Virus record (IMG/VR): IMGVR_UViG_3300009095_000026
Span: 1 to 44,642 of that record
DNA: 44,642 nucleotides
From: a virus
Taxonomy: Duplodnaviria > Caudoviricetes
Strand: one strand, 5' to 3'
Shown here one piece after another: positions 5,126-39,703 of this stretch (position 1 is the stretch's first letter; each line of letters opens with the position of its first letter). The notes under the pieces were generated by a model that was not told the origin of the DNA, searched no databases, and worked only from the letters and a program-made list of their open reading frames with translations. A program made the translations under genes and the position numbers.

Positions 5126-5770
5126 ATGCGCGTTCGTGTCGTCACTGTCACGTCAAGACCCGGGCACCCGTGGTTGCGCGAGGCTGTCGCTTCGGTGGCG
5201 CAAACGATACCGTCATCCTGTGAGCATGTGGTCGTGCAATCGAGCGGAGATCCGCTTGACTGGAATCGTGACTTGTGGGGCGCCTGCCAAGAAGCAGACG
5301 CTGTTGCGATCGTTGACGATGACGATGTTGTGCTGCCCGGAGCCGTCACGCTTTGTGCGCAAACTTTAACGACGCACCAGTGCGGATTGGCTTTCACGGA
5401 CGAGCAAGAGATTGATGCGCAAGGCAACCCTCTGCGCGAGGGCATGCGCCGTAGCCGGCGGCTCATGGACTTGGCGATGCACCCACGTAGCATCCATCAT
5501 CTCGCGATGTTTCGGCCTTCTTTTGTGCCTCCATCAGCGCTTGGTCTCGCCAACGAGTGCGGCCGCGGCCTGGACTGGCTCATGCGCGCAGCTGCTGGTT
5601 TGCGCGGAGGTGCTGTGCGAGTACCGATGATCGGATACCAGTGGCGACGGCATGGCGGGCAAGACTCCACGAGCGGCGCTGACCTCTACGCTGCGGCCAT
5701 GCCTGCGCTGCGGCGGCTGACCCGTTCGTGGATGGCCTACGACGCTGCCATTCCGGAGATGCAGTTGTGA
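5126..5770 (+). CDS. glycosyltransferase family 2-like protein
   Basis: WLREAVASV, AIVDDDDVVLPGA (DxD), D.WL, YQWRRHGGQ.S motifs of GT-A/GT2; ATG 5126 chosen over the longer ORF. Confidence 0.75.
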   Translation: MRVRVVTVTSRPGHPWLREAVASVAQTIPSSCEHVVVQSSGDPLDWNRDLWGACQEADAVAIVDDDDVVLPGAVTLCAQTLTTHQCGLAFTDEQEIDAQGNPLREGMRRSRRLMDLAMHPRSIHHLAMFRPSFVPPSALGLANECGRGLDWLMRAAAGLRGGAVRVPMIGYQWRRHGGQDSTSGADLYAAAMPALRRLTRSWMAYDAAIPEMQL

Positions 5771-19996: not shown

Positions 19997-20675
19997 GCTT
20001 GAGCCACAGATCATCGTGCTCCGCACCGGGCCAGCCCTCATTGAAAGGCCCGCCGTTGGTGAAGTGCGCGATGCCGAGGTTGTCGGGCCGTGGCTGCTCG
20101 TTCACAAGCCAGTTCCAGGCCGGGTCGAGTGCGCCGATCTCTTCGTCGTGCAGCCAGTAGAAGCCGTGGAGCTCCTGCCGGGTGCGGTGGTTCACGTCCC
20201 ACAGCGACAGGCGCCGGTTGGCCGGGTGATCGCAGTTGAACAGCATCACGCTTGACCAGTTCTTGCGCGGGTATTCGTTCTGGTACTGCTCCATCATCTT
20301 CACGGCCCGAGTCGGCTCGTGCTCGTGCTTGACCACACTGAGCGGCAGACGCGACGGCACCTCGCGCAGCATCTCGCGCGGATCGCGCACGAATACGGTG
20401 TCTGAGTCCACGAACAGCGCGAAGCCTTCTTGGCATAGGATCGGCGTCAGGAACCTGCTGATGTTGAACCGCGTGCTGTAGTGCGCGTTGCTGACGAGGT
20501 CGTACTCCTGCAGCGTGCGCTGGTCAACGGGCCGGGTCAGCAGACCACGCGACCGCAGGCTGGCGAGGCTCAGGAACTCGGGCTCGACCTCGCCGCGGGT
20601 GATGTCGATCAGAGACTTGAGGCACGCGGCCGCCGCCTTGTGCTCACGCTCGTCGTAGCCGATGTAGACCTTCAC
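19986..20675 (-). CDS. glycosyltransferase, GT8-like
   Basis: VYIGYD.RE, STRF..SRFL.P, ALFVDSD, YPRKNWSSVMLFNC, WNWLV, HFT.GGP. Confidence 0.85.
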   Translation of the reverse strand: MKVYIGYDEREHKAAAACLKSLIDITRGEVEPEFLSLASLRSRGLLTRPVDQRTLQEYDLVSNAHYSTRFNISRFLTPILCQEGFALFVDSDTVFVRDPREMLREVPSRLPLSVVKHEHEPTRAVKMMEQYQNEYPRKNWSSVMLFNCDHPANRRLSLWDVNHRTRQELHGFYWLHDEEIGALDPAWNWLVNEQPRPDNLGIAHFTNGGPFNEGWPGAEHDDLWLKHAG

Positions 20676-21334
20676 TTGGCCACCATGATGTAGTCGCCAC
20701 CGATCTCCTGCTCAACGCCGTAGCCCAGCGTCTGCAAGAACTTGACGGCGCCCAACGGCGCAAGGCCGAAACGGGTGCTGGCCATGTCGCGCTTCTGCTC
20801 GACGCACACCACCGGCTTCCACGTCTTGAGCAGGTGCTCGGCGCCGCGCAGCACGTTCTCTTCGTACCCCTCGCAGTCGATCTTGATGAAGTCGACATGC
20901 GCCAGGGTGAACGTATCGAGCGTCTTCAGCGGAATCTCGCCGCCTCCGTTGACATAGGAGTCGCCGCTGCTGGTGGGCGCCGTGTAGATGCTGACGCTGC
21001 CCTCTTCCTTGCCCAGCGCACACGGGATCAGTTCGACGTTGCGCGCTTCGACGTTGCGGGCGAAGCACTCACGATGCGCCGCCACCGGTTCGAAGGCGAG
21101 GACGTGCTCAAACGCCGCAGCCAGGTTGAACGACCACAAGCCGACATGCCCCCCAACATCAACAGCCATCCGCGCGGTGCCCTTGTACTTCTTCACCGTG
21201 TTGATGCACGCGAGCTGCTTCTTGCCCTGATAGGACGGGCGGCCGTTGAGGATGATGCGGTTCTTGGCGTTGGCCATCCACTCCGGCAGGTGCTTCTCGC
21301 CGTCCGGGAACCACCAGCTATCGACCTTCTTCAT
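20672..21334 (-). CDS. FkbM-family methyltransferase
   Basis: VDVGGHVGLWS, AFEP, VDFIKIDCEGYEENVLRGA, KPVVCVE. Confidence 0.9.
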   Translation of the reverse strand: MKKVDSWWFPDGEKHLPEWMANAKNRIILNGRPSYQGKKQLACINTVKKYKGTARMAVDVGGHVGLWSFNLAAAFEHVLAFEPVAAHRECFARNVEARNVELIPCALGKEEGSVSIYTAPTSSGDSYVNGGGEIPLKTLDTFTLAHVDFIKIDCEGYEENVLRGAEHLLKTWKPVVCVEQKRDMASTRFGLAPLGAVKFLQTLGYGVEQEIGGDYIMVAK

Positions 21335-22091
21335 TGCGCAGAATCTCCATCAGGTTGTCGGTCACCTCTTTGACCGGGATCATCTCCATCGACCTTCGGC
21401 AGCTGGCGCAGTTGATGCGCATGCCGCAAGTCTTGGAGGCGTGGCGGATGTTGCGATGCGTGGCGTAGCCGGTGATGCTTGGGTCGATGAACTCCGACCA
21501 CAGCACCACGGCGGGCACGCCGACCGCTGCGGCGCCGTGCATCAGGCCGCCTTCCGTCGTGACGAGCGCGCGGCACGCCGAGAGCACCGCGAGCGCGTGC
21601 CGGAAGGTGGGCGTCTCGACGAACTCCACATCGGGCAGCCGCTTCGTGCTGGCCGGGCCGCACTGCAAGAGCCGCAGGCCCCGCACGTACTGCGGTGCCC
21701 AGGCGACGAACTGCGTCCAGCTGTGCCATGGCCACGCCTTGTTGGAGTGGCCGGTGGCCTTGACGTTGGGCTCGACCAGCACCGCGCCACGGTATGGCTC
21801 GGCGAACGCCAGTTCCTCGGGCGTGAAGAACATCTCGGCGGGCTTGGGCTTGTACGGCTTCCACGTCCACCGTCCTGCGCTCTTGGCCGCGATGTAGGGC
21901 CGGTGGCCGGAGGAACTGATCACCCGCACGAACGGGCGGCCGTCAGGCTTGCGCAGGATGTAGGGGTTGTTGGCGAACACCTCGGACCACTGGGGCTTGC
22001 CCGCCGGGTCGGTGATCAGCACAGGGCGGCCGGTAGCAGCGTGCGCCGCCTTGGCCTCGCCGGCCGCCATGAGCCAATCACCGTAGCCCAT
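21318..22091 (-). CDS. glycosyltransferase family 9-like (heptosyltransferase-like)
   Basis: MGYGDWLM, VFANNPYI, LVTTEGGLMHGAAAVGVPAVVLW; TGATG coupling. Confidence 0.8.
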   Translation of the reverse strand: MGYGDWLMAAGEAKAAHAATGRPVLITDPAGKPQWSEVFANNPYILRKPDGRPFVRVISSSGHRPYIAAKSAGRWTWKPYKPKPAEMFFTPEELAFAEPYRGAVLVEPNVKATGHSNKAWPWHSWTQFVAWAPQYVRGLRLLQCGPASTKRLPDVEFVETPTFRHALAVLSACRALVTTEGGLMHGAAAVGVPAVVLWSEFIDPSITGYATHRNIRHASKTCGMRINCASCRRSMEMIPVKEVTDNLMEILRNEEGR

Positions 22092-22606
22092 CAGGGCGTC
22101 TCCGTCAGTTCGAAGCGGATGTTGGTCGCGTCGGCCCACGTCTGGAACTTGCGACGCCACCACTCGTACGGCTGCACCGTGACGTGCATGTTCGTGCCGT
22201 CCGGGAAGGTCTTCTTGGCCGGTCGGCAGCACACCGAGGCCCAGACCGCGTAGCGGGCGTAGCTGAAGAGCCGCGCGATCACTTCGTCGACCTGGTCTTC
22301 GGGCACGTGCTCCAGCACATCGCTGCACAGCACGAGGTCGAACTTGCCGGTCGGCAGCACGTCGTCGCGGCGGAAGGCCGGATCGTAGAGCGTGACATCG
22401 GCGCGGGCGATGCCCAGCTGATGGTGCAGCTTGTGCGGGCTGCGGTAGGCGTCGCCGCGGCCGCAGCCGTAGTCGAGCATGCTCTTCGCGCGCACCTCGC
22501 GCGCCAGCTTCTGGATGCGTTCCTTGTGCTGAAGGATCGACAGTCCCTGGAAGTTGTTGCTGTCCTTGGCCGCGAGTTCGCGGTAGAGAGGGATCAGGTC
22601 AGGCAT
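22091..22606 (-). CDS. class I SAM-dependent methyltransferase
   Basis: SMLDYGCGRG, LYDPA, FDLVLCSDVLEHVPE, HVTVQP.EWW. Confidence 0.88.
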   Translation of the reverse strand: MPDLIPLYRELAAKDSNNFQGLSILQHKERIQKLAREVRAKSMLDYGCGRGDAYRSPHKLHHQLGIARADVTLYDPAFRRDDVLPTGKFDLVLCSDVLEHVPEDQVDEVIARLFSYARYAVWASVCCRPAKKTFPDGTNMHVTVQPYEWWRRKFQTWADATNIRFELTETP

Positions 22607-23171
22607 TCTTGTTCCTGCGGTAGTACCCTACATATTCGCCGAAGGCGCCATCGTAGCCGGCGTGCTCGACGTACCAGCCGCCGTTCTTCATCACGGTGCC
22701 GATGTGGTGCGGTTCGTTGCCTGAGCGCTCGTCGATGATCGTCGGCGCGTGCTGCGGGGGCAGGCGCAGGACGACGAGCTCACGCGCCGAGGCGGCCAGG
22801 CGCGCCGCCACCGCCGTGGGGTTGCGAACCTTCTGGAGTAGTGCCAGCGCGATCACGATGTCGTAGTTGCGCTTGGGCTGCCACACGTTGGCGTCGCCGA
22901 CTTCAAACGTCACCGGCAGATCGCCACGCAGCTTGTTGGCCACCTCGACGTGCCCCGGCACGATCTCGACGCCGTGCACCGCCAGCGCGCCGGCCTTGGC
23001 CAGTTCAATGCTGATCAGCCCTTCAGCACACCCGAGGTCAAGGATTGTCTTTCCGTGCGCGGCCATGAACAGCCGATCCAGGCCATTGAGTTGCTGCTCC
23101 AGCGTCCGATCGCCCGGCCGCCCCGGAGTGGAGAACCACCCCTTCTTCACGTCTTTTCCAGCCATCGCCAT
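22599..23171 (-). CDS. class I SAM-dependent methyltransferase
   Basis: GKTILDLGCAEGLIS, VHGVE, YDIVIALALL. Confidence 0.85.
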   Translation of the reverse strand: MAMAGKDVKKGWFSTPGRPGDRTLEQQLNGLDRLFMAAHGKTILDLGCAEGLISIELAKAGALAVHGVEIVPGHVEVANKLRGDLPVTFEVGDANVWQPKRNYDIVIALALLQKVRNPTAVAARLAASARELVVLRLPPQHAPTIIDERSGNEPHHIGTVMKNGGWYVEHAGYDGAFGEYVGYYRRNKNA

Positions 23172-23917
23172 GCAGTCCCGTTTCTGAATTCTTCCAAGGT
23201 GAACTGGTTGTCGGCCAGGATCTCGCAGAACCTGAGCCGCAGCGGGTCGTCCGGGGTCGGCGGCCGGAAGATTGCTTCCGAGGTCAACGGCCCGGTGAGA
23301 TGGTACGCCGCTGCGGTCTGTCCGGTGCTGACTGAGGGCACGCCCTCGATCATCGCCGTGATGCTGGCCGAACTGCTGTGTGAGATCAGCAGGCGCACGT
23401 TCGGCAGCAGACTCTCCAGCGTAACGGCCGCGGCCTTCTTGTCGCGGTTCCACGGTCGCACCTTCACCGGGATGTCGGTGCCGGTGATGTTCTCCTGCGT
23501 CTGCTTGAGCCAGTCAAGAGTGCTCGCGGTCCAGTTGTACACCGGCCCGTTGCCGAGCGTCGACTTCATGAAGTCGTCGGACTGCGGGCACAGCAGGATA
23601 TAGCCGTCCGGGTTAATTCGCCACGGCTGGATCGTGATGCCCAGCTTCGCGAAGCGCTCGCCGGTGCTGGTCTTGCCGCGTGGGTCGACTTGCAGCGCGT
23701 TCTTAGTGACGCGGAAGTAGATGCCGCGGTGCTTGTCAAAGTAGGAGTTGTCGCAATAGAACCACGTGCCTTGCTGCGCGCGGCGGAAGTTCTGCATCTG
23801 GCCTTCGGTGCCGAAGAAGACGGCGCCGGTGGCGTGCTTGGGCGCGCCGGCGGCGAAGGCGTTGCAGATCAGCTTGCTCTTCTCTTTGCCGGGCACGGGG
23901 TAGAGGGTCAAACCCAT
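23147..23917 (-). CDS. GT-B glycosyltransferase-like (capsule synthesis KpsC/KpsS-like)
   Basis: YCDNSYF, ILLCPQS, VKVRP, LISHSSSASITAMIEGVP. Confidence 0.65.
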   Translation of the reverse strand: MGLTLYPVPGKEKSKLICNAFAAGAPKHATGAVFFGTEGQMQNFRRAQQGTWFYCDNSYFDKHRGIYFRVTKNALQVDPRGKTSTGERFAKLGITIQPWRINPDGYILLCPQSDDFMKSTLGNGPVYNWTASTLDWLKQTQENITGTDIPVKVRPWNRDKKAAAVTLESLLPNVRLLISHSSSASITAMIEGVPSVSTGQTAAAYHLTGPLTSEAIFRPPTPDDPLRLRFCEILADNQFTLEEFRNGTAWRWLEKT

Positions 23918-24687
23918 CGCGGACTCTCTTTCAGCTTGGCCAGAATGCGAGCGAACGGCTCGCCCGTCGCGATCTCGTCGAAGTGCCACTGGTTGTGCGC
24001 CATGCGCTCCAGCGCCGCCTCGCGATTGTCGACCCACTTCTCGCAGATCCAGTGCGGCGCGAAGTGCTGCACCGGGATGCCTTCGACGAGAGCGCGCACG
24101 CCGATCGCGCTGCTCCAGATCACGACGCTGCGCGCGCCGGCCAGGGCCTGGGCATCCTTGTCGAGTTTGCCCTTGTCGCCGGGGTGCGCCATCAGCTTGA
24201 CCGGAAACGGGGCGTGCCGGCGCAGGTTCGCCTCCATGCGCTTGCCCCAGTTGGGCGGGCTGGCCATCAGCGTCGAGCCGATGCCGCGCTGATCGCGCAC
24301 GAGGATGTACTGACCGCCGTCGCGCATCGGCTTGGCTGTCCAGCCCAGCTTGTCGAAGCGCTTGTCGTCGCCGACCGGAAACCAGCCCGAGCCGTTGTGG
24401 CCATGCACGCTGACCGCGTAGTAGGTCTTGTCGACCTTCTGCAAGTAGCCGTTCTCCAGCACGATCACGGTGCCGCCCTTGCGCTCCCACGCATCGGCGC
24501 CTTGCTCGTCGATGCCGCGCTTGCGGTTCCAGATCACGAGCAGATCTTCGGGGCCGTGAGGGCTGAAGCGGTTGTTCGGGTAGGGCGACGAGTAGAGCTT
24601 GTAGCCCAGCCGCGCGAGGCCGTTGCTGATCGCCTGCGCGCGGTAGGCAGGCTCGGGCCGGATGCAGAAGACCGCGATGCGGCTCAT
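23908..24687 (-). CDS. GT-B glycosyltransferase-like, paralogue of the next gene
   Basis: IVLENGYL, ILVRDQ, AHP, VVIWSSAIGVRALVEGIPV, QWHFDEIATG. Confidence 0.65.
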   Translation of the reverse strand: MSRIAVFCIRPEPAYRAQAISNGLARLGYKLYSSPYPNNRFSPHGPEDLLVIWNRKRGIDEQGADAWERKGGTVIVLENGYLQKVDKTYYAVSVHGHNGSGWFPVGDDKRFDKLGWTAKPMRDGGQYILVRDQRGIGSTLMASPPNWGKRMEANLRRHAPFPVKLMAHPGDKGKLDKDAQALAGARSVVIWSSAIGVRALVEGIPVQHFAPHWICEKWVDNREAALERMAHNQWHFDEIATGEPFARILAKLKESPRWV

Positions 24688-25298
24688 CGCGCGAGCTCCT
24701 GTTCCAGATCGCCCATCGGGAAGTGCGTGAGCGCCGAGCCAGGCGTGCAGTTCACGACCGTCACGCCAGCGGCCTTCAGATCGGCGGCGAGCACGCCCAT
24801 CTTCTTGCGCCACTCTTCGAACTGCTGGGCCTGCACGAGCGGCTTCGGATGGTCCGGGTGCCAGTGCTTCTCGCCGTTCGCGCCCGGCTTCATGTCCATG
24901 CCGATCAGCAGGATGCGCCGCACACCGAAGTGGTAGGCGAGGTTGATCGCACCGGCGCCGCTGTTGCCGTTCACGCGCAAGCCGATCTTGCCCAAGCCGT
25001 CCTTGGCCTCCCAGCGGATGTGGCCGAGGCAGAACTGCTCGGCCGCGCCGCGGTCCTGCGTCCACAGCTTCTCGCGGCCGATGTTCTGCTTGACCTTCAT
25101 GTGGTTCGTCTTCCACCAAAGGTAGTCGCAGGCGTAGACGGCGTCGGGGTGTGCGAGCTTGAGGTAGCTGCTGTTCACCGCAATCGTCTTCACGTTCGCG
25201 TGCTCAACGTGCACGATCTGCTCGTCGGTGAGGCTCGGGCCGCTGGCGACGACCACTGCGGTGTGGCCGCGCCAGTCGGGCTTCAGGGGAGGCGTCAC
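24684..25298 (-). CDS. Maf/DUF115-like glycosyltransferase
   Basis: AVVVASGPSL, TIAVN, D.LWW, NSGAGAINLAYHFG.RRILLIGMDM, VVNCT..SAL..FP. Confidence 0.75.
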   Translation of the reverse strand: MTPPLKPDWRGHTAVVVASGPSLTDEQIVHVEHANVKTIAVNSSYLKLAHPDAVYACDYLWWKTNHMKVKQNIGREKLWTQDRGAAEQFCLGHIRWEAKDGLGKIGLRVNGNSGAGAINLAYHFGVRRILLIGMDMKPGANGEKHWHPDHPKPLVQAQQFEEWRKKMGVLAADLKAAGVTVVNCTPGSALTHFPMGDLEQELAR

Positions 25299-27288: not shown

Positions 27289-27494
27289 GGGTACTTGCGA
27301 CGGATGTCTGCCGCGAGCTCCGGAAGAGCGTCTTGGCAGGCATCGGCGTAGGCACGCAACGCCACCCTGGCAAAAGGGTCGTGCGTCAGATCCAGCGTGA
27401 AGTATTCAGCGCCCTCGCGATCGCCCCCAGGAGCATCGCGTCCGTCCTTGCGCGACACGTTGAACTTTTGATAGAGACCTCGGTTTTCAGGCAT
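27285..27494 (-). CDS. conserved small phage protein
   Basis: GLYQKFNV.RKDG...YF.LDL..DPFA..AL.AYA pattern. Confidence 0.65.
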   Translation of the reverse strand: MPENRGLYQKFNVSRKDGRDAPGGDREGAEYFTLDLTHDPFARVALRAYADACQDALPELAADIRRKYP

Positions 27495-27945
27495 GGTGCA
27501 TCCTTTTGATCAGCCAGAAGTACACGACGAAAGCGGCGAGCATCTTGCTGGCTGTCATCAAGACAACGCCGCCGACAGAGAAGAATCCGATCAATCCAAG
27601 AAACACCGCAGAGTCAACCGGTGTACCGAGAGCGCTTGACAGAAGAACTCGTTGCGCGAGAGGCCGCTTGCTGAAGGTGTAGACCGCCCAGTCAACGAGT
27701 TCACTGACGAGGTACGCCGCGCAGCTGGCAACAGCCACCGCTGGAGACGCCATGAGATATGAGATTGCTGCGCCGATGAGCATGATGAACAGCACCTTAT
27801 GTCCTACTTCGCGTTGCGCAAAATCACGCAGCACAAAGACAAGCCCGACCGCAAGCGACATCGGGGGCCACCCATGGATAAGAGGAACATGGACGAAACC
27901 GACGTTGATCAGCACGATGGAAACAAGATAAAGAACGGAGTACAT
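27487..27945 (-). CDS. VUT/YhhQ-family preQ0/preQ1 transporter
   Basis: Multi-TM protein; GLVFVLRDFAQ, AS..AYLVSELVDWAVYT, SS....PVDS.VFL. Confidence 0.85.
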   Translation of the reverse strand: MYSVLYLVSIVLINVGFVHVPLIHGWPPMSLAVGLVFVLRDFAQREVGHKVLFIMLIGAAISYLMASPAVAVASCAAYLVSELVDWAVYTFSKRPLAQRVLLSSALGTPVDSAVFLGLIGFFSVGGVVLMTASKMLAAFVVYFWLIKRMHHA

Positions 27946-27955
27946 GAAATATCTT

Positions 27956-28681
27956 TCAGTAAAGAGGTTCGTCAAACAATCCTGTGACCTTGGCGGTCCA
28001 CGCTTTGGCTTCTCTCCAGCTGTTGGCATCCCGGCCTTGCTTGCGCGCGGCGTAGGACCAGGCCATAGAGTCTGCAGTGTGCAAGAGTTCTCGCACCAGA
28101 GGCGACCGCAGCGCGGTCATCTTCAAACCGAAACCGTGCAAGCGCAGATCAGGCCTTTCCCGCTTGATGGCAAGAAGTACAGCTTCGATTGCTTTCGGGT
28201 CACCATTTCGCTTGCAGACCGAACCGACCCCAACCCACGCGCCGTGGCCTAGCCGATCGCCGTATTGCCGCAGATGAGAGACGTACTCTTCGGGTGCGTA
28301 GCCTTGCAACACCGGCATGATGTACGTCTTCCCCGCGTCCCACACCAGCGTCAGTTCGTCGTAGCGTTCAATCGTCAGGCGCTGGTGCTCTGCAATCGTG
28401 AGCCCTGTCTTCTTGAGCATTGCTGGCTCACACATCCAGTCTTGAGACACCGCGGCGAGCAAGTTACCGTTGTTCTCCCACCGTTTGATCTGCTCGGCGT
28501 ACACCTTTGGGCTGTCGGGGTAGTGCCCATGCTTGTAGATGGTAGTGAAAGCGCCGCTGTCCATGATCCAGTTGTTTACAGGAAAGTTGGACTTGCGGTC
28601 CCGAATGGTGTTGATCGAGATGAAAGCGGCGTCAAAGTGCTGAGCGTCCGCCGGATGATGCAGTCCGGTGAAGAACTTCAC
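27956..28681 (-). CDS. DpdA/TGT-like transglycosylase
   Basis: MDSGAF, QDWMCEP, PVLQG, GVGSVCKR, LHGFG, DSMAWSYAAR; adjacent to the VUT transporter; GTGA overlap start. Confidence 0.75.
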   Translation of the reverse strand: MKFFTGLHHPADAQHFDAAFISINTIRDRKSNFPVNNWIMDSGAFTTIYKHGHYPDSPKVYAEQIKRWENNGNLLAAVSQDWMCEPAMLKKTGLTIAEHQRLTIERYDELTLVWDAGKTYIMPVLQGYAPEEYVSHLRQYGDRLGHGAWVGVGSVCKRNGDPKAIEAVLLAIKRERPDLRLHGFGLKMTALRSPLVRELLHTADSMAWSYAARKQGRDANSWREAKAWTAKVTGLFDEPLY

Positions 28682-28989
28682 CGCGGCGGCAACCACTCAT
28701 CCAGTTGCTCTTCAGTGCTGATCACCAGCACCACGCAACCCGCGGCGCGCATGCGCTCGTGCTCGCGCGCTTGCCCGACCGTGGGCTTGCCGTCCGGGGC
28801 TTTGGTTTCAACGAAGCCGTGGCTATTGCACATGCTGAGGGTTCCGAACTTCATGTCTTGCAAACCAGGGAACAGGTACATTACATCCGGTGCGTACCGA
28901 CGGCCGAGCCACGCCACGGCGCGGATCTCGCCGCCGTAGGCTTCGACTCGCGCCTTGAGCTTCGCTCGCAGTTTGCCTTCAGCGGCCAT
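28678..28989 (-). CDS. VRR-NUC domain nuclease
   Basis: APD...FVETKAP.GKP...Q.REH..MR..G..V.VI. Confidence 0.85.
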   Translation of the reverse strand: MAAEGKLRAKLKARVEAYGGEIRAVAWLGRRYAPDVMYLFPGLQDMKFGTLSMCNSHGFVETKAPDGKPTVGQAREHERMRAAGCVVLVISTEEQLDEWLPPR

Positions 28990-32547: not shown

Positions 32548-32874
32548 TCAGAAGAACGTGGGCTGAGCCACGGCGCGAGTCAACGCCATGAGCCCTTCCT
32601 GAAAGTGCGTGCGGGCGATAGCGGCCCAGCGCTCGGGCTGCGCGCGGTCCATGCGAGCGCGTGCCATGTTGAAATCGGGCCGCGGGCGCCCCTCCAGATC
32701 GGCCAGCGCGTCGTTCTCGGTCAGCGGAGGATTGCGACCGGCGGCAATGTGCTCGGCGACCTTCGCCAGCAGTTCCTCCATCTGCGGGCCCATGCCCTTG
32801 ATGGTGTTCATCATGTCGATGTCGGCCTGCGACAGCTCGCGGTAGCCGGCAATCTTGCGGTGCTGGTTGTCCAT
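32548..32874 (-). CDS. acb2: anti-CBASS protein Acb2 homologue
   Basis: MDNQHRKIAGYRELSQADIDMMNTIK...RWAAIARTHFQEGLMALTRAVAQPTFF matches the Acb2 family pattern. Confidence 0.85.
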   Translation of the reverse strand: MDNQHRKIAGYRELSQADIDMMNTIKGMGPQMEELLAKVAEHIAAGRNPPLTENDALADLEGRPRPDFNMARARMDRAQPERWAAIARTHFQEGLMALTRAVAQPTFF

Positions 32875-32875
32875 G

Positions 32876-34231
32876 TCAGTACAGATCCTCGTCGGCCGGC
32901 TCGTCGGCCACAGTGGTGAAGTCCTCGTCGGTCGGCGCCGGCGGGGTGTAGGGCTTCTTGATCGCGCCGGCGGGTTTGACGCTGGGCTTGGGATCGCTGC
33001 GCGTGATCTGGTCTTGCAGCTTCTTCCACTGCCGCGGGCCGAGCACGGGCTTGGTCTGGCCCTCGGCCGGCTTGAGCAGCGTGTCTTCGAACTGGGTGGG
33101 GCTCTTGAGCTTGAAGTTGAAGACATCCGCCTCGGCCAGCCGGAACTGCTTGCGCACGATCTCGGTGACCTCGTCCTTGTCCTTCCACTTGCGCGGGCCC
33201 TGGCGACCCAACTCCAGGCCGAAGCCAGGCACTTCCTCGCGGTTGAGCAGCCGCCGTTCGGTCTCGGCGCGCACGGCCTTGCAGAAGTCCTCCAAGAAGC
33301 CGGCGGCCGACATCTTGAGCGACAGGTCACGGGGGTTGGTGTTCTTGCTCACGAACTGGTGCACCTCGGTCTCGGGGTCGGAGATCACGTCGAAGTCGGC
33401 GCCGACCACCTGCTCGACCTTGCGGCGTGCGCTCGGGCACGTCGACATGGCGCGGCAGAAGGCACACTCTTCTTCGTTCGGGTTCTGGTTGAGGAAGGTG
33501 CGGTCCCACTCTTCCATCGGGATCTTGCCGTGCATCGCCTCGGCGTTGCGCACGCTGGCGGCCTTGCTGCGCGCCAGGTTGGCGAACTCGCGCAGATCCT
33601 GCAGCGTGCACTGCCATTCCTCCATGCCGGCGCTGTAGACCTTCGGCTGGTAGATGCCCAGGCGGATGGTCTTCAGGCCGGCTTCCTCGGCCCACGCGAA
33701 CGGATCGCTGGCCGCCGCGGCGATGTCCTCGTCCATCAGGTAGCGCAGCGCGCCCAGGGCGTAGAACATCGCCTGCGTGTTGCGCTCGACCGTCACCGGC
33801 GTGTGGCCGGTCTTCAGGTCGTACACGCCCAGTTCGCCGTCCTGCTCGTGCCAGATGATACAGTCGGCCGTGCCGAACTGGCCCTCGATCTGCACGAACT
33901 CCGAGAAGTCGACGCGCGTCTCGACCAGCATCCGGTTGCCGATGCCGATCTTGCGCACGGTGTCGACGTAGCCTTGCACGAGGTCGGCCATGTCGTCGGT
34001 GAACTCGACGAAGCGCGGCTCTTCGTGCTTGGCGTTGACCGGGATGTCCTGGCCGACGTACTTGCTCGCGCGCCAGTGCTCGGTGAGGCACAGCGCGGCG
34101 ACGTGGTGCATCGCGGTGCCGTCGTCGCTGTAGGTGGACGAGCGGTTCGGGATCGGCGCTTCCAGCACGAGGCTGCCGGGGCAGGCGAACCACTTCTTGC
34201 TAGAAGATGGAGACAACTTAGCGTGGTCCAC
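32876..34231 (-). CDS. Cas4-like PD-(D/E)xK exonuclease (DUF2800-like)
   Basis: HAKLSPSS..W..CPGS, GTAMH, E.RVD, FGTAD, DLKTG, N.Q.MFYALGA, CAFCRA...CP. Confidence 0.88.
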   Translation of the reverse strand: MDHAKLSPSSSKKWFACPGSLVLEAPIPNRSSTYSDDGTAMHHVAALCLTEHWRASKYVGQDIPVNAKHEEPRFVEFTDDMADLVQGYVDTVRKIGIGNRMLVETRVDFSEFVQIEGQFGTADCIIWHEQDGELGVYDLKTGHTPVTVERNTQAMFYALGALRYLMDEDIAAAASDPFAWAEEAGLKTIRLGIYQPKVYSAGMEEWQCTLQDLREFANLARSKAASVRNAEAMHGKIPMEEWDRTFLNQNPNEEECAFCRAMSTCPSARRKVEQVVGADFDVISDPETEVHQFVSKNTNPRDLSLKMSAAGFLEDFCKAVRAETERRLLNREEVPGFGLELGRQGPRKWKDKDEVTEIVRKQFRLAEADVFNFKLKSPTQFEDTLLKPAEGQTKPVLGPRQWKKLQDQITRSDPKPSVKPAGAIKKPYTPPAPTDEDFTTVADEPADEDLY

Positions 34232-35365: not shown

Positions 35366-35455
35366 TCGGAAAGCGGGCAGTCGGAGTTACTTGAGTCGGG
35401 CAGTCGGGTCTTCGGAGTTGAGTTGTCAGTGGTTCGGCTATTCGGAGTTCTCGGG
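35366..35455 (-). repeat. 7-9 nt periodic CCGA repeats
   Basis: TCGG on + at 35366, 35381, 35396, 35404, 35412, 35434, 35442, 35451, with variants at 35373 and 35426. Confidence 0.7.
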
Positions 35456-35475
35456 TGCTGGGGCAAGCCCCAGCG

Positions 35476-35549
35476 AGTCGATTGAAGGATTCGAACCTTC
35501 TCACGCATCCTTAGCAGGGATGTGCTCTACCGATGAGAGCTAAATCAAC
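35476..35549 (-). tRNA. tRNA-like gene, anticodon GCT, non-canonical
   Basis: Acceptor GTTGATT/AATCGAC, D arm GCTC..GG..GAGC, anticodon arm CATCC-CTGCTAA-GGATG, T arm GAAGG-TTCGAAT-CCTTC; 5-nt variable loop; no encoded CCA. Confidence 0.8.
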
Positions 35550-35655
35550 AACAGTCAATGCAACGACGCTGCGCAACGTCTACAGCTTCGGTGGAGGTGC
35601 TGTGCAAACCTCTACCCTCGCCGATCGGCCGCCGCGCAGAGCCCACCTTGAAACG

Positions 35656-35988
35656 TCAGGCCGCCTTGGCCGCCGTGACGGCCGCCGGCTCTTCGTAGGT
35701 CTTGAACAGATCCTCCGAACCGGTGTCCACGTCCGTGTTCCAGTTGGCCTTCTGGATCAGCGCATCCACGAGACGCAGCTGACGGGCGTAGTAGTCGTGC
35801 TCGCCGACCACCTGGGCGAAGGTCAGCTTCGGCACGGTCATCGTGATGTCGTCGATGGTCTCGCTGATCTGCTTGCGCTGCGTCTTCACGGCGAAGATGT
35901 CCTTCGTGCGGATGTCGACGCGTGCCTTCACGAGATCGGTGAGTTCCTTGCGGCGGAGCAGAAGCTCGGCCAGTTTGACTTGGGCCAT
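35656..35988 (-). CDS. DIP1984-like protein, short form
   Basis: KLAELLLRRKEL at the N-terminus and ARQLRLVDALIQKANWNTDV near the C-terminus; GGAG RBS. Confidence 0.65.
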   Translation of the reverse strand: MAQVKLAELLLRRKELTDLVKARVDIRTKDIFAVKTQRKQISETIDDITMTVPKLTFAQVVGEHDYYARQLRLVDALIQKANWNTDVDTGSEDLFKTYEEPAAVTAAKAA

Positions 35989-36038
35989 GATGGTCTCCAG
36001 TGGTTGAGAAAGAAGGTGTTCAACAGAGAACGGAGCGA

Positions 36039-36067
36039 AGCGTAGCGTTTGATACGCGAGTCGTCAA
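36039..36067 (-). promoter_or_regulatory. sigma70 promoter for the leftward operon
   Basis: TTGACG-N17-TACGCT on the minus strand. Confidence 0.7.
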
Positions 36068-36167
36068 GTGCTTTTTGCGAACGCTTGCAAAAAAGAACCC
36101 GCCGGGTGGCGGGTCAAGCACGGCAGTGGAGGGAGGAGACCAAACCCCGGGCGGGGCGCCGTGTGAG

Positions 36168-36196
36168 TTGAATGCTAGCGGAACAAATGCTACGAT
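36168..36196 (+). promoter_or_regulatory. sigma70 promoter, probably giving a leaderless mRNA
   Basis: TTGAAT-N17-TACGAT, 6 nt before ATG 36203, no SD. Confidence 0.7.
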
Positions 36197-36202
36197 GCAA
36201 GC

Positions 36203-36466
36203 ATGCGAACCAACATCCGCCGGCTCACCGCCGAACAGCTTCGGCAACTGAGCGCGAAATCCAGCATTAGCTACGACATGCTGCGGCACTACGCCCGCGG
36301 TCGGCGCGGCATCAAGTCCCTCACGGCCATCAACATTGAGAAGGCTGCCCGCAAGATCGGTCTCGATCTGCGCCGTGAGGATCTCAACAGCGGTTGCGCG
36401 CGGTGCGAGTTCGCCCGATCGTGCCGCAAGAACCTGCGGGAGCCAGCAGAGAAAGCCGCGAAGTGA
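36203..36466 (+). CDS. Cro-like HTH regulator
   Basis: LSAKSSISYDMLRHYARGRR...A..IE; CxxCxxxxxC tail; first gene after the divergent promoter. Confidence 0.7.
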   Translation: MRTNIRRLTAEQLRQLSAKSSISYDMLRHYARGRRGIKSLTAINIEKAARKIGLDLRREDLNSGCARCEFARSCRKNLREPAEKAAK

Positions 36467-36620
36467 CCGCGTGGTGCCCAGCCCCTTGATGCTACGAGGC
36501 CGCGCGGCCCGCGAACCCTTACGCGCGCTCATGCACAAACCCTGGCTGTGCTCGTGAGCTAGAGCAGGGAATCTCGGGGAACGGTCTTTTAACTCACTCT
36601 CTTTCTTGAACGGGGATCAC

Positions 36621-36845
36621 ATGACTCAACGTGTTGAATTGGACGGTGGCAAGTACACCGTCATCCGCGAGAACGATGGCCGCATGCACGCACTGCGCTA
36701 CGGCGAACCTTGGCGCGATCTGGTCGGCGACAACCTCATCTACTGGCTAATGGTGGAGATCGCCGTGTTGAATGACGCGGTGATGAAGGCGTGCGGCGAC
36801 GATGTTGAGGCCGCGAAGGCCACAATTGAATCGCAGCGAGGGTGA
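36621..36845 (+). CDS. conserved small phage protein
   Basis: DGGKYTV...ALRYGEPWRDLVGDNL. Confidence 0.7.
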   Translation: MTQRVELDGGKYTVIRENDGRMHALRYGEPWRDLVGDNLIYWLMVEIAVLNDAVMKACGDDVEAAKATIESQRG

Positions 36846-36846
36846 C

Positions 36847-37053
36847 ATGATCGAAGTCCGAATCGCAGCGGCCCGCTTGGCCAAGTTCGACAGCGAGGTG
36901 CACCGCGGCCTGCTCGTGCTGCGTGAACTGCGCGACGCCGGCATCCCGGTCGTCGGCGCCCTGTTCCCGCTGGGCGTGAAGGTCGGGCGGCTGGAGGTCG
37001 AGTACGACGAGCTCGTGTCTGACGAGTGGGTGTGGCGTTGGATTGAGGCCTAA
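36847..37053 (+). CDS. hypothetical protein
   Basis: GAGGGT RBS; TAA stop lies inside the attC core site. Confidence 0.65.
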   Translation: MIEVRIAAARLAKFDSEVHRGLLVLRELRDAGIPVVGALFPLGVKVGRLEVEYDELVSDEWVWRWIEA

Positions 37054-37168
37054 CGTTCGAGCTAAGCGGATCGAACCGGCCCCAAACCAAGGAAACGAAC
37101 CATGAACATTTCCGAGAACCAAGATGCCGCCAGCCGGGGCGAGTCCGCGCTTCAGCGAGTAGTTAGGC
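37048..37168 (-). mobile_element. integron attC-like site 1 (121 bp)
   Basis: Minus strand: GCCTAAC-TACTC-GCTGAAGC...GCTTAGC-TCGAAC-GTTAGGC = R''/5/L''(8)...L'(7)/6/R'. Confidence 0.8.
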
Positions 37169-37338
37169 ATCTGCGCGAAGCTGCGCGGCACGTCTATTGG
37201 GCGCTTCGCTACGGAGAATGGAGTGCCGGCTGGGAGAACTACAAAAACAAGCCGATGCTCGGCGTGTACCTCTGCTACTACGACGGCCACCACTGCTGCC
37301 TGCATGTCGGCCCTGGCTGGCTTGCGGTGCATTACTGA
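37102..37338 (+). CDS. cassette-borne hypothetical protein
   Basis: AAGGA RBS and ATG lie inside attC1; Trp/Tyr/His/Cys-rich; stops 1 nt before attC2. Confidence 0.6.
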   Translation: MNISENQDAASRGESALQRVVRHLREAARHVYWALRYGEWSAGWENYKNKPMLGVYLCYYDGHHCCLHVGPGWLAVHY

Positions 37339-37339
37339 T

Positions 37340-37401
37340 GCCTAACGTTTGAGCTGAGGGGCGCCCGGAGGGCGTCCCGAACCTCCAGCGAAGAGTTATG
37401 C
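37340..37401 (-). mobile_element. integron attC-like site 2 (62 bp)
   Basis: Minus strand: GCATAAC-TCTTC-GCTGGAGG...CCTCAGC-TCAAAC-GTTAGGC. Confidence 0.8.
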
Positions 37402-37432
37402 AGAAGCCCCAGCAGGGCAGAAAGGAACCGAA

Positions 37433-37855
37433 GTGAGGATGTGGATTGACACCGAGTTCAACGAGTACCGCGGCGCGCTCATCTCGATGGCGCTGGTGGC
37501 CGAGAACGGAGAGGAGTGGTACGGCGTGCGCTACTGCGATGACCCGGGCTTCTGGGTGCGTGAGCATGTGATGCCGCACCTCGGCAAAGAGCCGCAGCGA
37601 GACTGCGTGCTGCGCGTGTCGCTGGATCAGTTCCTGCGACAGTTCAACAGCGTGCACATCGTCTCTGACTGGCCCGGCGACATCGCGCACTTCTGCAACT
37701 TCTTGGAGTACGCGCCTGGCGACCGCATCGGGCCGAACTCGATGACGTTCGAGGTGCGCCGCGATCTACCGGACACCTCCAAGACATCCGCCATTCCGCA
37801 CAACGCTCTGGAAGACGCTAGAGCGTTGGCGCGAGGTGCATTGGCTGCTGCATAA
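37433..37855 (+). CDS. DEDDh 3'-5' exonuclease (cassette-borne)
   Basis: IDTEF, LISMALV, WV.EHV.PHL, D...D, HNALEDARA. Confidence 0.85.
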   Translation: MRMWIDTEFNEYRGALISMALVAENGEEWYGVRYCDDPGFWVREHVMPHLGKEPQRDCVLRVSLDQFLRQFNSVHIVSDWPGDIAHFCNFLEYAPGDRIGPNSMTFEVRRDLPDTSKTSAIPHNALEDARALARGALAAA

Positions 37856-37895
37856 CGTGATGTAGACTTACTTTGCAAAGTAAGCGCCTAAAAAT
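37850..37895 (-). mobile_element. attI-like site with 18-bp palindrome
   Basis: Minus strand TTTAGGCG-CTTACTTTGCAAAGTAAG-TCTAC-ATCAC-GTTATGC: lone core site with no attC hairpin partner. Confidence 0.5.
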
Positions 37896-38199
37896 GAAGC
37901 ACTACTCACGCCGCCGTCATCCCAAGCCTGAGCCGCCGGAGGGTTACAGCCCGCCCGAGCCCGACAACCTGCCGCCGCCCGGTACCGAGATCGGCCACGT
38001 CACGCTGAGCCTGTACGGTCAGTCCGTGCACGTGCCGATCCGGCAACCAGGCACGGTCAAGGGTCGCCGGCCGCGATCGGATCAGATCGCCATCGAGGTT
38101 GACGGCACCTGGCTCGTGATGAGCCTGCGCGAAGCGGCGCTGGACGCTGTGAAGCGGATGCCGCGGGTGATGACTCGCAAAGAGCGAGCAGGCTGGTAA
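37894..38199 (+). CDS. hypothetical protein
   Basis: Pro-rich N-terminus, good codon bias. Confidence 0.55.
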   Translation: MKHYSRRRHPKPEPPEGYSPPEPDNLPPPGTEIGHVTLSLYGQSVHVPIRQPGTVKGRRPRSDQIAIEVDGTWLVMSLREAALDAVKRMPRVMTRKERAGW

Positions 38200-38206
38200 G
38201 TAGCAC

Positions 38207-38236
38207 TTGCTCCACAGTTCGACTTAGGTGTATGCT
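38207..38236 (+). promoter_or_regulatory. possible sigma70 promoter
   Basis: TTGCTC-N18-TATGCT in an intergenic gap. Confidence 0.4.
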
Positions 38237-38244
38237 GGCCGTCC

Positions 38245-38353
38245 GCCGCCAAGCGTAACCGATTCAACCCGAGAGACCACGAGAGATGAGGCGCCACCCG
38301 CTGCCCAGCGGTGTGGGCTTGGCGGCATCACGCCTCATCCCTCGTGGTCTTTT
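38245..38353 (+). promoter_or_regulatory. structured leader RNA
   Basis: 20-bp stem 38274-38293/38331-38350 (19/20) followed by Ts; 38245-38254 complementary to 38317-38326 in the loop. Confidence 0.6.
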
Positions 38354-38372
38354 CCTTTCTGGAGATAGGAAC

Positions 38373-38546
38373 GTGCGCAACTCCAACTATCAGATGCTCG
38401 ATCTCGCGCCGCTGGACTTCGACCCCGAGGACCGCGACATCCTCGCACTGCCCGTGCCGATCGTGGTTGAGGGCTTGTCGATGGCGCTGTGGGAGGCCGA
38501 GGTCCGGGCCTGGGCCGACACCGAGCCGGCGGGGTTGAGAACGTGA
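38373..38546 (+). CDS. small acidic hypothetical protein
   Basis: GGAG RBS, GTG start, GTGA coupling to the methyltransferase. Confidence 0.5.
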   Translation: MRNSNYQMLDLAPLDFDPEDRDILALPVPIVVEGLSMALWEAEVRAWADTEPAGLRT

Positions 38547-39703
38547 GCAATCATGCGTACTACAACGAGATTGACGACTATGCCGCAGAGTGGCTTGAGA
38601 ACCTCATCCGAGCCGGCCACATCGCCCCCGGAGTCGTTGACCGGCGCAGCATTGTGGATGTCCGACCCGCGGACCTGGCTGAGTTCACCCAGTGCCACTT
38701 CTTTGCTGGAGTCGGAGTCTGGTCGCTTGCACTTCGCCAAGCTGGTTGGCGAGATGACCAGCGAATTTGGACTGGCAGCTGTCCGTGCCAGCCTTTCTCC
38801 GCGGCAGGCAAAGGCGCTGGGTTTGACGACGAGCGGCATCTGTGGCCCGCATGGCACTACCTCATCGGTGAGTGCCGCCCTCCAGTCATCGTTGGCGAGC
38901 AAGTTGCAAGCAAGGATGCCCTTGAGTGGTGGGATCTTGTTCAAGCTGACTTGGAAGCAGAGGGTTACGCCGCAGGGGCGGGCGATCTGTGCGCTGCGGG
39001 CATCGGTGCCCCGCACATCCGACAGCGACTGTGGTGGGTGGCCTACCACGGGGGCAGGCGACGAAAAGTGGCGCATCAGCACGGCGGCGGCGGCGGATCG
39101 TCGCTTGGCGAGCGGCAAGCAGGTGAGTTTGGAGTGCGCAGCGTTTTTAGCGAGTTGGCCGACGCCCCGTACGAGCGAGAACGTGCAAACCAATCTGGAC
39201 GAGATCGCGGCTATGGGAAGCAGCTGGCTGGGGCAGAACCGCGGGGCCACAGTGAGCACGATGGCGCAGTTGGCGAGTTGGCCTACGGCGGCGGCGAGGG
39301 ACTGGAAGGATGGCCACGAGCAGGCGGTGCCGACGAATGCGTTGCTGGGCCGCGTGGCTTGGTTGGCCGGTTGGCCGACGACGACAACCGAAGCCAACAC
39401 GCATTGTTACGGTCCGGGCCGGACGATCCAGCTGAAGACCTATGGAGCGGCTCGCTTGGCGGACTGGTCGGACACATGGCCGCAGGGCACGAAAGCGAAT
39501 CTACAGGGGTTCTCTCTGGTTTCTGGGCCAACGCCGAGTGGATCCCCTGCCGCGACGGCAAGTGGCGGCCAGTTGAACCCGGCACATTCCCGCTGGCTCA
39601 TGGGGCTCCCGCCCGAGTGGGACGCCTGCGCGCCTACGGCAACGCGATCGTCGCGCCGCTCGCGGCCGAGTGGATCCGCGTCGTGATGGAGTGCCGGCCA
39701 TGA
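38543..39703 (+). CDS. C5 cytosine DNA methyltransferase, catalytic chain
   Basis: HFFAGVG (I), GSCPCQPFS (IV), EQV (VI), PHIRQRLW (VIII), [10 protein letters not shown] (X). Confidence 0.9.
38553..39686 (+). CDS. overlapping alternative-frame methyltransferase subunit (true start uncertain)
   Basis: Open for 377 codons in +1 frame; repeated WPT motifs and [18 protein letters not shown] (motif IX-like). Confidence 0.65.

Follow-up and report, generated by a model that had tools for sequence, protein, structure and literature searches.

Integrons are viewed as bacterial tools and, lately, as stores of anti-phage genes. Their recombination is not known to need an accessory factor. The classical integron consists of intI, attI, a Pc promoter and attC cassettes. 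The locus described here shares with it an attI-like site and an attC array, crossover at G/TT, insertion at attI and a recombining strand defined by bulged bases (strand rules in the accessible part of PMC2727003). Groups of at least two same-strand attC sites within 4 kb and with no intI nearby are termed CALINs (accessible parts of PMC4889954 and PMC9892861). Such arrays occur in phages, and according to the accessible part of the article by Qi et al. (2023, PMC9892861) their attC sites recombine with IntI1.

The array analysed here is a CALIN under this definition and lies on a linear viral contig (44,642 bases; completeness rated at 78%), which as a whole we call the window. Like the phage CALINs of PMC9892861, it consists of attC-bounded small genes and has no intI; the accessible part of that article does not mention genes that are antisense to attC, an attI platform in virulent phages or turnover of cassettes between relatives. 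Compared with the classical integron, the window has no intI, its cargo is reversed, and a palindrome and a small gene stand on the intI side. The chromosomal integrons of Burkholderiales (Piscinibacter, Rubrivivax) have attC sites of the same sequence family and geometry and carry IntI; their genes run towards attC (109 versus 9 among the matches listed) and their intI adjoins attI, neither of which is the case in the window. Three complete phage-borne integrons (viral loci L038, L051 and L062) have the same attC family and reversed genes, with a similar attI box in L038; unlike the window, they encode IntI behind attI, and their arm contains GTT-type repeats. In the literature searched, which left most subscription titles outside its scope and included the accessible parts of PMC12901181, PMC10127599, PMC13366799, PMC4889954 and PMC8618304, we found no report of the reversed layout or of an accessory protein. 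Phage attC arrays are already published (PMC9892861, in its accessible part); no printed account of the reversed layout or of the small protein came up in these searches.

Genome setting of the array

A scan of 66 chosen ORFs identified genes for head, tail, lysis, helicase, family-A polymerase, DUF2800 nuclease and primase; a gene for a single-stranded DNA-binding protein is also present in the window. The array is part of a series of small rightward genes that precedes the primase gene. We take the phage to resemble podoviruses of the BcepC6B/BPP-1 type; in the comparison with GenBank phages, the match to BcepC6B was confined to a methyltransferase, and nothing related to the array region or to the protein encoded behind it was found among these phages.

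Several further features of the contig were recorded. A tRNA gene (35476-35549, minus strand) was the sole Rfam match in the window. Two long overlapping plus-strand frames (38489-39703 and 38553-39686) each match DNA methyltransferase families; this block is missing in many sibling phages, whose joint corresponds to ~38535 to 39699. A DpdA gene and a Vut_1 transporter-like gene (27487-28696, minus strand) point to 7-deazaguanine DNA modification. Methyltransferase and glycosyltransferase-like genes form a cluster between the lysis genes and the helicase gene (20672-25298, minus strand), and an Acb2/Tad1 hairpin-domain protein, likely an anti-defence signal sponge, is encoded at 32548-32880 (minus strand).

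Two attC sites on the minus strand

The array contains the following attC sites:

37048..37168, minus strand: attC1, 121 bp; R boxes 7/7, L boxes 7/7; 64.5 bits on the minus versus 9.9 bits on the plus strand
37340..37401, minus strand: attC2, 62 bp; R boxes 6/7, L boxes 7/7; 42.6 bits on the minus strand, no plus-strand match above 5.8 bits

Both have inverted R''-L''-L'-R' boxes at canonical spacing with one bulged base in L''. When the whole window was scanned for this geometry (R''-5-L''(8)...L'(7)-5/6-R', pairing at least 6/7), the two minus-strand sites and one isolated plus-strand site (5548-5604) were returned, against 0.37 sites per genome in 100 dinucleotide shuffles; two sites within 1 kb of each other occurred in 0 of 200 shuffled strands.

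The scores listed above come from a covariance model built from 43 bacterial attC sites and run on both strands, a check that a preceding sequence-only reading of this DNA had proposed and that came out in its favour (64.5 and 42.6 bits on the minus strand); the next-best match in the window reached 11.3 bits. Since the training set had been fished with the 17-letter R'-half motif of the window sites, the independent evidence in these scores is the contrast between strands and the R''/L'' half. A TJE1 site served as control and was placed by the model (19.1 bits) on the strand assigned by Qi et al. The 17-letter motif retrieved at least 145 viral and at least 220 bacterial stretches, and the bacterial matches listed were long arrays, mostly from Piscinibacter, Rubrivivax and other Burkholderiales.

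The sequence-only reading had called the two sites canonical. Their coordinates and geometry held, and the adjective is slightly too strong, since the first bulged base on the reactive strand is C in both attC1 and attC2 instead of the usual G. Among the matches listed, 39 of the 313 bacterial sites and 2 of the 116 viral ones likewise have C in this position. The change of G16 to C caused only a 2.7-fold drop (Bouvier et al. 2009, accessible part of PMC2727003). The predicted folding odds of the window sites are 0.024 and 0.05-0.12, as compared to family medians of 0.26-0.28, and attC1 alone folds no better than its shuffles (z ~ -0.7). Judged by sequence comparison, both sites are confirmed as attC sites that face the minus strand.

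An attI-like platform at the head of the array

The right end of the array is formed by an attI-like site with a palindrome in its arm:

37850..37890, minus strand: attI-like site; core 37850-37856, crossover 37855/37856, 5-nt spacer, L-like box 37862-37867
37867..37884, no strand: palindrome of 18 bp in the attI arm, a candidate binding site, in single copy in the window

The core GTTATGC at 37850 had previously been read as the entry core of the last cassette. It is that, and in addition the core of an attI-like platform; the earlier reading overlooked the arm of this attI as well as the small gene that follows. The L box and its spacing are those of the site in front of the true IntI gene (TIGR02249, 427 bits) in viral locus L038, and such a box follows 3 of the 1040 GTT triplets of the window.

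Sibling phages were searched for in metagenomes by means of the protein encoded behind attI, not by attC. This gave 28 loci: the window, 2 that stop short of the junction, and 25 others. In all 25 spanning sibling contigs, the right arm from AAC onward is common, and the DNA to the left differs, with ~19 different neighbours. Because the cores share letters, 23 of the 25 alignments end at 37850-37854, and the remaining 2 extend slightly further by chance. By comparison with L038 and the siblings, an attI thus appears to stand at the head of the array. A chance target of the attG type was set aside on account of the fixed arm conserved in 25/25 siblings. We know of no dif-like layout at the array, and use of Xer/dif was set aside as well.

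The palindrome is kept in the siblings with one letter varying, and five viral loci were found with it as a search pattern. A palindrome-like box is present in 7 of 8 arms followed by the small gene, in 0 of 3 IntI arms and in 1 of 13 others, counts that come from a motif defined after the fact and from eight arms that are not all independent. No sigma-70-type promoter was found at 35400-38600; as the cargo is reversed, a Pc promoter would transcribe antisense to the genes.

Cassettes and their turnover in sibling phages

To the left of attI lie two cassettes and an anchor gene:

36847..37053, plus strand: anchor gene, 68 aa, at the far end of the array, with its stop codon in the first attC core
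37054..37345, minus strand: cassette 1, 292 bp, bounds set from the cores
37102..37338, plus strand: ORF of 78 aa, antisense to its own attC, with only 2 relatives
37346..37855, minus strand: cassette 2, 510 bp, carrying an exonuclease gene
37433..37855, plus strand: gene for an RNase AS/Rv2179c-like 3'-5' exonuclease, antisense to its own attC; its stop is the TAA of the core

Each cassette is a unit bounded by G|TT crossovers whose core matches its own R''; the sizes of 292 and 510 bp and both core/R'' matches are as claimed before. The anchor gene has a weak match to PHROG 31589. It is present in 11 sibling contigs with 69-96% identity and is followed directly by a first attC in each of them (with a degenerate core in L428). 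A close sibling, L189 (2451-4140), shares only the first ~11 anchor codons; it is without the attI arm and the small gene of the window and has a different terminal junction.

The 78-aa ORF belongs to no Pfam or PHROG family, and its ribosome-binding site and start codon are contained in the attC1 loop as read on the plus strand. Cassette 1 was not seen in the 25 other arrays and is not covered in runs X2, X3 and X6, where missing cover does not prove absence. The exonuclease matches PDB entries 6s0m and 4oke (E ~1e-7) and PHROG 2259, and NCBIfam RNase_AS below the cut-off. The same 510-bp cassette 2 was found in L158, with 439 of 510 positions identical, no gaps, and other neighbours on both sides. 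This homology takes in the attC upstream of the exonuclease gene: in L158, the attC body and the 5' end of the gene have moved together. Cassette 2 also occurs in runs X2 and X6, and in X2 it abuts attI as in the window. Relatives of the exonuclease (L147-L159) have different attC bodies upstream, and several more distant ones have none; core and gene end covary despite the differing bodies. Simple shuffling by IntI would not explain these varied or absent attC bodies.

For the analysis of turnover we used 26 arrays, namely 24 metagenome siblings with detected attC, L195 and the window; several are cut by contig ends and some attC sites were missed in them. They contain 71 cassettes in 49 groups. 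L432, L451 and L452 carry cassettes a-b, and L443 carries a, a unit of 359 bp, b, and three more cassettes at attI. Its cassettes a and b are identical to those of L432 over 285 and 508 bases, and the joints are exactly at AA|C. Further cassettes reappear among different neighbours at the beginning, in the middle or at the end of an array, some of them as identical copies, and a contig of run X6 has the exonuclease cassette with 0 differences, followed by ~380 extra bases and then the attI arm. Changes between relatives thus fall at the cores, in 25/25 cases at attI, which is the breakpoint pattern that the sequence-only reading had predicted, and its claim that the phage gains and loses accessory genes as cassettes was borne out by this turnover. 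Whole-cassette gain, loss and reordering at the predicted breakpoints are seen in the compared sibling sequences. No excised circle or empty site was found in any sibling or in four runs, and no variant joints in run X1, a possible source of the window (contigs only).

Of the 57 distinct cassettes, 48 have a core that matches R'' perfectly (mean of permutations 22, maximum 33; 4 rows with bad edges and 10 duplicates were left out). Rare four-letter core variants are matched in 16 of 21 cassettes (permutation mean 1.4, maximum 8). Since even rare variants match across the cassette, the exchange is placed in the core.

None of the 71 sibling cassette bodies matches the 614 kb of bacterial loci, and 16 of the 71 match other viral loci. 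On these comparisons, the phage cassette pool is apparently separate from the bacterial one. One attC inside a phage array (L456:684-810; 111.9 bits) has the long bacterial form and may be a recent chromosomal capture.

Reversed gene orientation

The core/R'' match is an identical 7-mer pair in either orientation and does not by itself fix the polarity; the minus-facing polarity follows from the bulge side, the covariance model and the relatives. In the cassette norm, the gene runs from the entry core towards its own attC. This is not so here: the best ORF is antisense to attC in both window cassettes and, over all 26 arrays, in 70 of the 71 cassettes, in agreement with the earlier observation that the ORFs run opposite to the norm. 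The 116 full viral sites among the matches listed comprise 63 reversed sites, spread over ~47 contigs, and 0 normal ones (6 uncalled, 47 with too little flank). The 313 bacterial sites listed comprise 109 normal and 9 reversed ones (2 ambiguous, 72 uncalled, 121 too short); in all, 74 of 192 bacterial sites went uncalled, many of them because the codon model for gene calling was trained on the genes of the window phage, but this model is strand-blind. Reversal is not universal in phages, since the TJE1 array is normal, with its bottom strand on minus according to the article (accessible part of PMC9892861) and its genes on plus. By these counts, viral contigs with this attC family as a rule have the reversed layout, and bacteria do not.

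In 38 of the 71 cassettes the stop codon ends at the crossover, and in 19 of the 71 the start lies inside the attC. The recombination sites would thus double as translation signals.

A small gene behind the attI-like site

The position that intI takes in complete phage integrons is occupied by a small gene:

37894..38199, plus strand: gene for a 101-aa protein of an unnamed family

The gene is real and under purifying selection, with 438 synonymous versus 170 non-synonymous codon changes in 18 sibling copies. Its product has no named match in Pfam, PHROGs, PDB sequences or the ESM Atlas (Atlas scores below 0.9). A profile of the protein gave 26 matches among 1.8 billion representatives, 3 of which were long proteins and were dropped from the family profile. 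Searched against 23,078 six-frame locus segments, the family profile matched ten other viral contigs, siblings aside (E 1e-6 to 0.12), and no bacterial array. In nine of these ten the gene is the first ORF after the terminal site; in the tenth it is ~350 bases past its attC.

As the loci scanned in this way had been chosen for attC, the link to attI was put to two further tests. First, a distant subgroup, linked to the group of the window with a probability of 76 (E 2e-5), was fetched by protein. It comprised 18 loci, and reversed attC arrays were present in 12/12 good matches with at least 300 upstream bases; five of these 12 are on contigs new to the analysis. Second, 401 bacterial genomes gave one strong family match; 16 bases separate its start from the preceding core, upstream of which there are three reversed attC sites. 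Ten weak bacterial matches (E 2e-5 to 9e-3) have no attC nearby and were taken as chance or unlinked. The family was not found in the three IntI-bearing records (L038, L051 and L062), two of which are 15%-complete fragments. Taken together, the sequence comparisons firmly indicate a tie of the 101-aa family to the attI position, outside which members were hardly ever encountered. In L023, L054 and L055, a second family of small proteins is encoded directly after attI-like sites; no link of it to the 101-aa family was found.

As a lead, we propose the 101-aa protein as a candidate accessory DNA-binding factor for attI. The data would equally suit an ordinary phage regulator with a leader that turned into an attI in the distant past. 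Going further, the attI arm, palindrome and small gene might form a phage module that replaces intI, in which the protein would bind the palindrome and recruit, enable or time the host integrase; this is a tentative idea that we are inclined to doubt.

Source of the recombinase and alternative explanations

Six-frame searches of the 78%-complete contig with PF00589 and PF00239 revealed no tyrosine recombinase or resolvase. The earlier statement that there is no integrase is therefore correct for the contig, 78% of the genome. The window also has no intI beside attI as in a complete integron. We consider that it carries a working integron-type array without an integrase of its own, consisting of anchor gene, attC cassettes and attI and served most likely by the chromosomal IntI of the host; we give this reading a probability of about two in three. 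Four observations lead to a host IntI acting in trans, which had been suggested from the sequence and is still the most likely source by inference. The attC family is that of Burkholderiales chromosomal integrons, and IntI was found over the cut-off in 4 of 5 tested genomes bearing it; the host is probably a member of the Burkholderiales. Among 101 genomes from this likely host group, 43 encode IntI. The complete genomes G412 and G418 have such arrays and no match to TIGR02249, PF00589 or PF00239, so some such phages, at least, need an enzyme from outside (G415 and G005, also complete, have only a PF00589 integrase). Finally, bacterial genome G185 contains a prophage-like reversed array and, on another contig, IntI. 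Upstream of bacterial intI genes in L419-L423, we observed CTGT-N8-ACAG boxes, which are presumably of the LexA type; if so, the supply of host IntI would depend on SOS induction.

The same array and chemistry could be served by a viral integrase, encoded in the missing fifth of the genome or delivered by co-infecting phages or prophages with IntI. The incompleteness of the contig leaves room for it, and L038, L051 and L062 do have IntI beside reversed arrays, with a nearly identical attI box in L038. However, phage IntI, where seen, is encoded right behind attI, the very place that the small gene occupies here. In addition, no IntI was found in loci L428-L472, no TIGR02249 match in ten viral records with array and small gene (3-4 of them complete), and bacteria of the likely host group frequently have an IntI of their own. 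We consider a viral enzyme unlikely.

Still less probable is that the sites are integron-derived and the cassettes now move by homologous recombination, through host RecA or through phage exonuclease and single-strand-binding proteins. In its favour, the sites resemble one another in sequence, a single gene is found with several attC bodies, and the phage has a DUF2800 nuclease and a single-stranded DNA-binding protein. Yet the matching of rare core variants (16/21 versus 1.4 expected) argues against it, as does the attI site, which shares ~5 letters with attC beyond the core and yet has ~19 neighbours; moreover, moved cassettes are identical end to end.

That the window array is a frozen relic with weakened sites would agree with the unusual bulged C, the low folding odds and the unvarying joints in the contigs of run X1. 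We regard this as very improbable, since the exonuclease cassette occurs in X6 with 0 differences and an extra unit before attI, and the loss on changing G16 to C is small (PMC2727003, accessible part).

A plus-facing reading, with ordinary cassettes and each gene running towards its own attC, is refuted by the model scores and the L158 comparison: two of the three genes do stop in an RYYTAAC motif like normal cassette genes, and the core match is symmetric, but the bulge side and a model that agrees with the published strand of TJE1 favour minus, the 78-aa gene would be cut in two, no attC follows 37850, and the L158 homology includes the upstream attC.

Discussion

We propose that an integron integrase, most likely that of the host, releases the cassettes in circular form and integrates them at AA|C, either in attI or in attC cores. 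The attC chemistry would be standard, with the cargo on the other strand: each attC stands before its gene and can carry the translation start, and the core often supplies the stop. IntI would cut the folded bottom strand; in this array that is the plus strand, which is mRNA-like. On insertion at attI, a circle would keep its gene in line with the rightward operon of the phage, so that a Pc promoter would not be needed, and new cassettes would come last in the transcript, as opposed to first in bacteria.

One phage population has passed ~49 kinds of cassette through a single slot with base-exact breakpoints, in a mirror image of the bacterial layout. This bears on whether phages hijack host IntI and on whether an accessory protein acts at attI. 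If the proposed module is real, phages would maintain a mirror-image cassette pool of their own by means of a borrowed enzyme, and there would be an accessory factor for integron recombination. The build of these cassettes, with a site before the gene that holds its start and a core that serves as stop, is relevant to the still open question of how cassettes originate, and the occurrence of one gene with several attC bodies bears on how cassettes are made. The cassettes also offer a ready screen for phage counter-defence genes.
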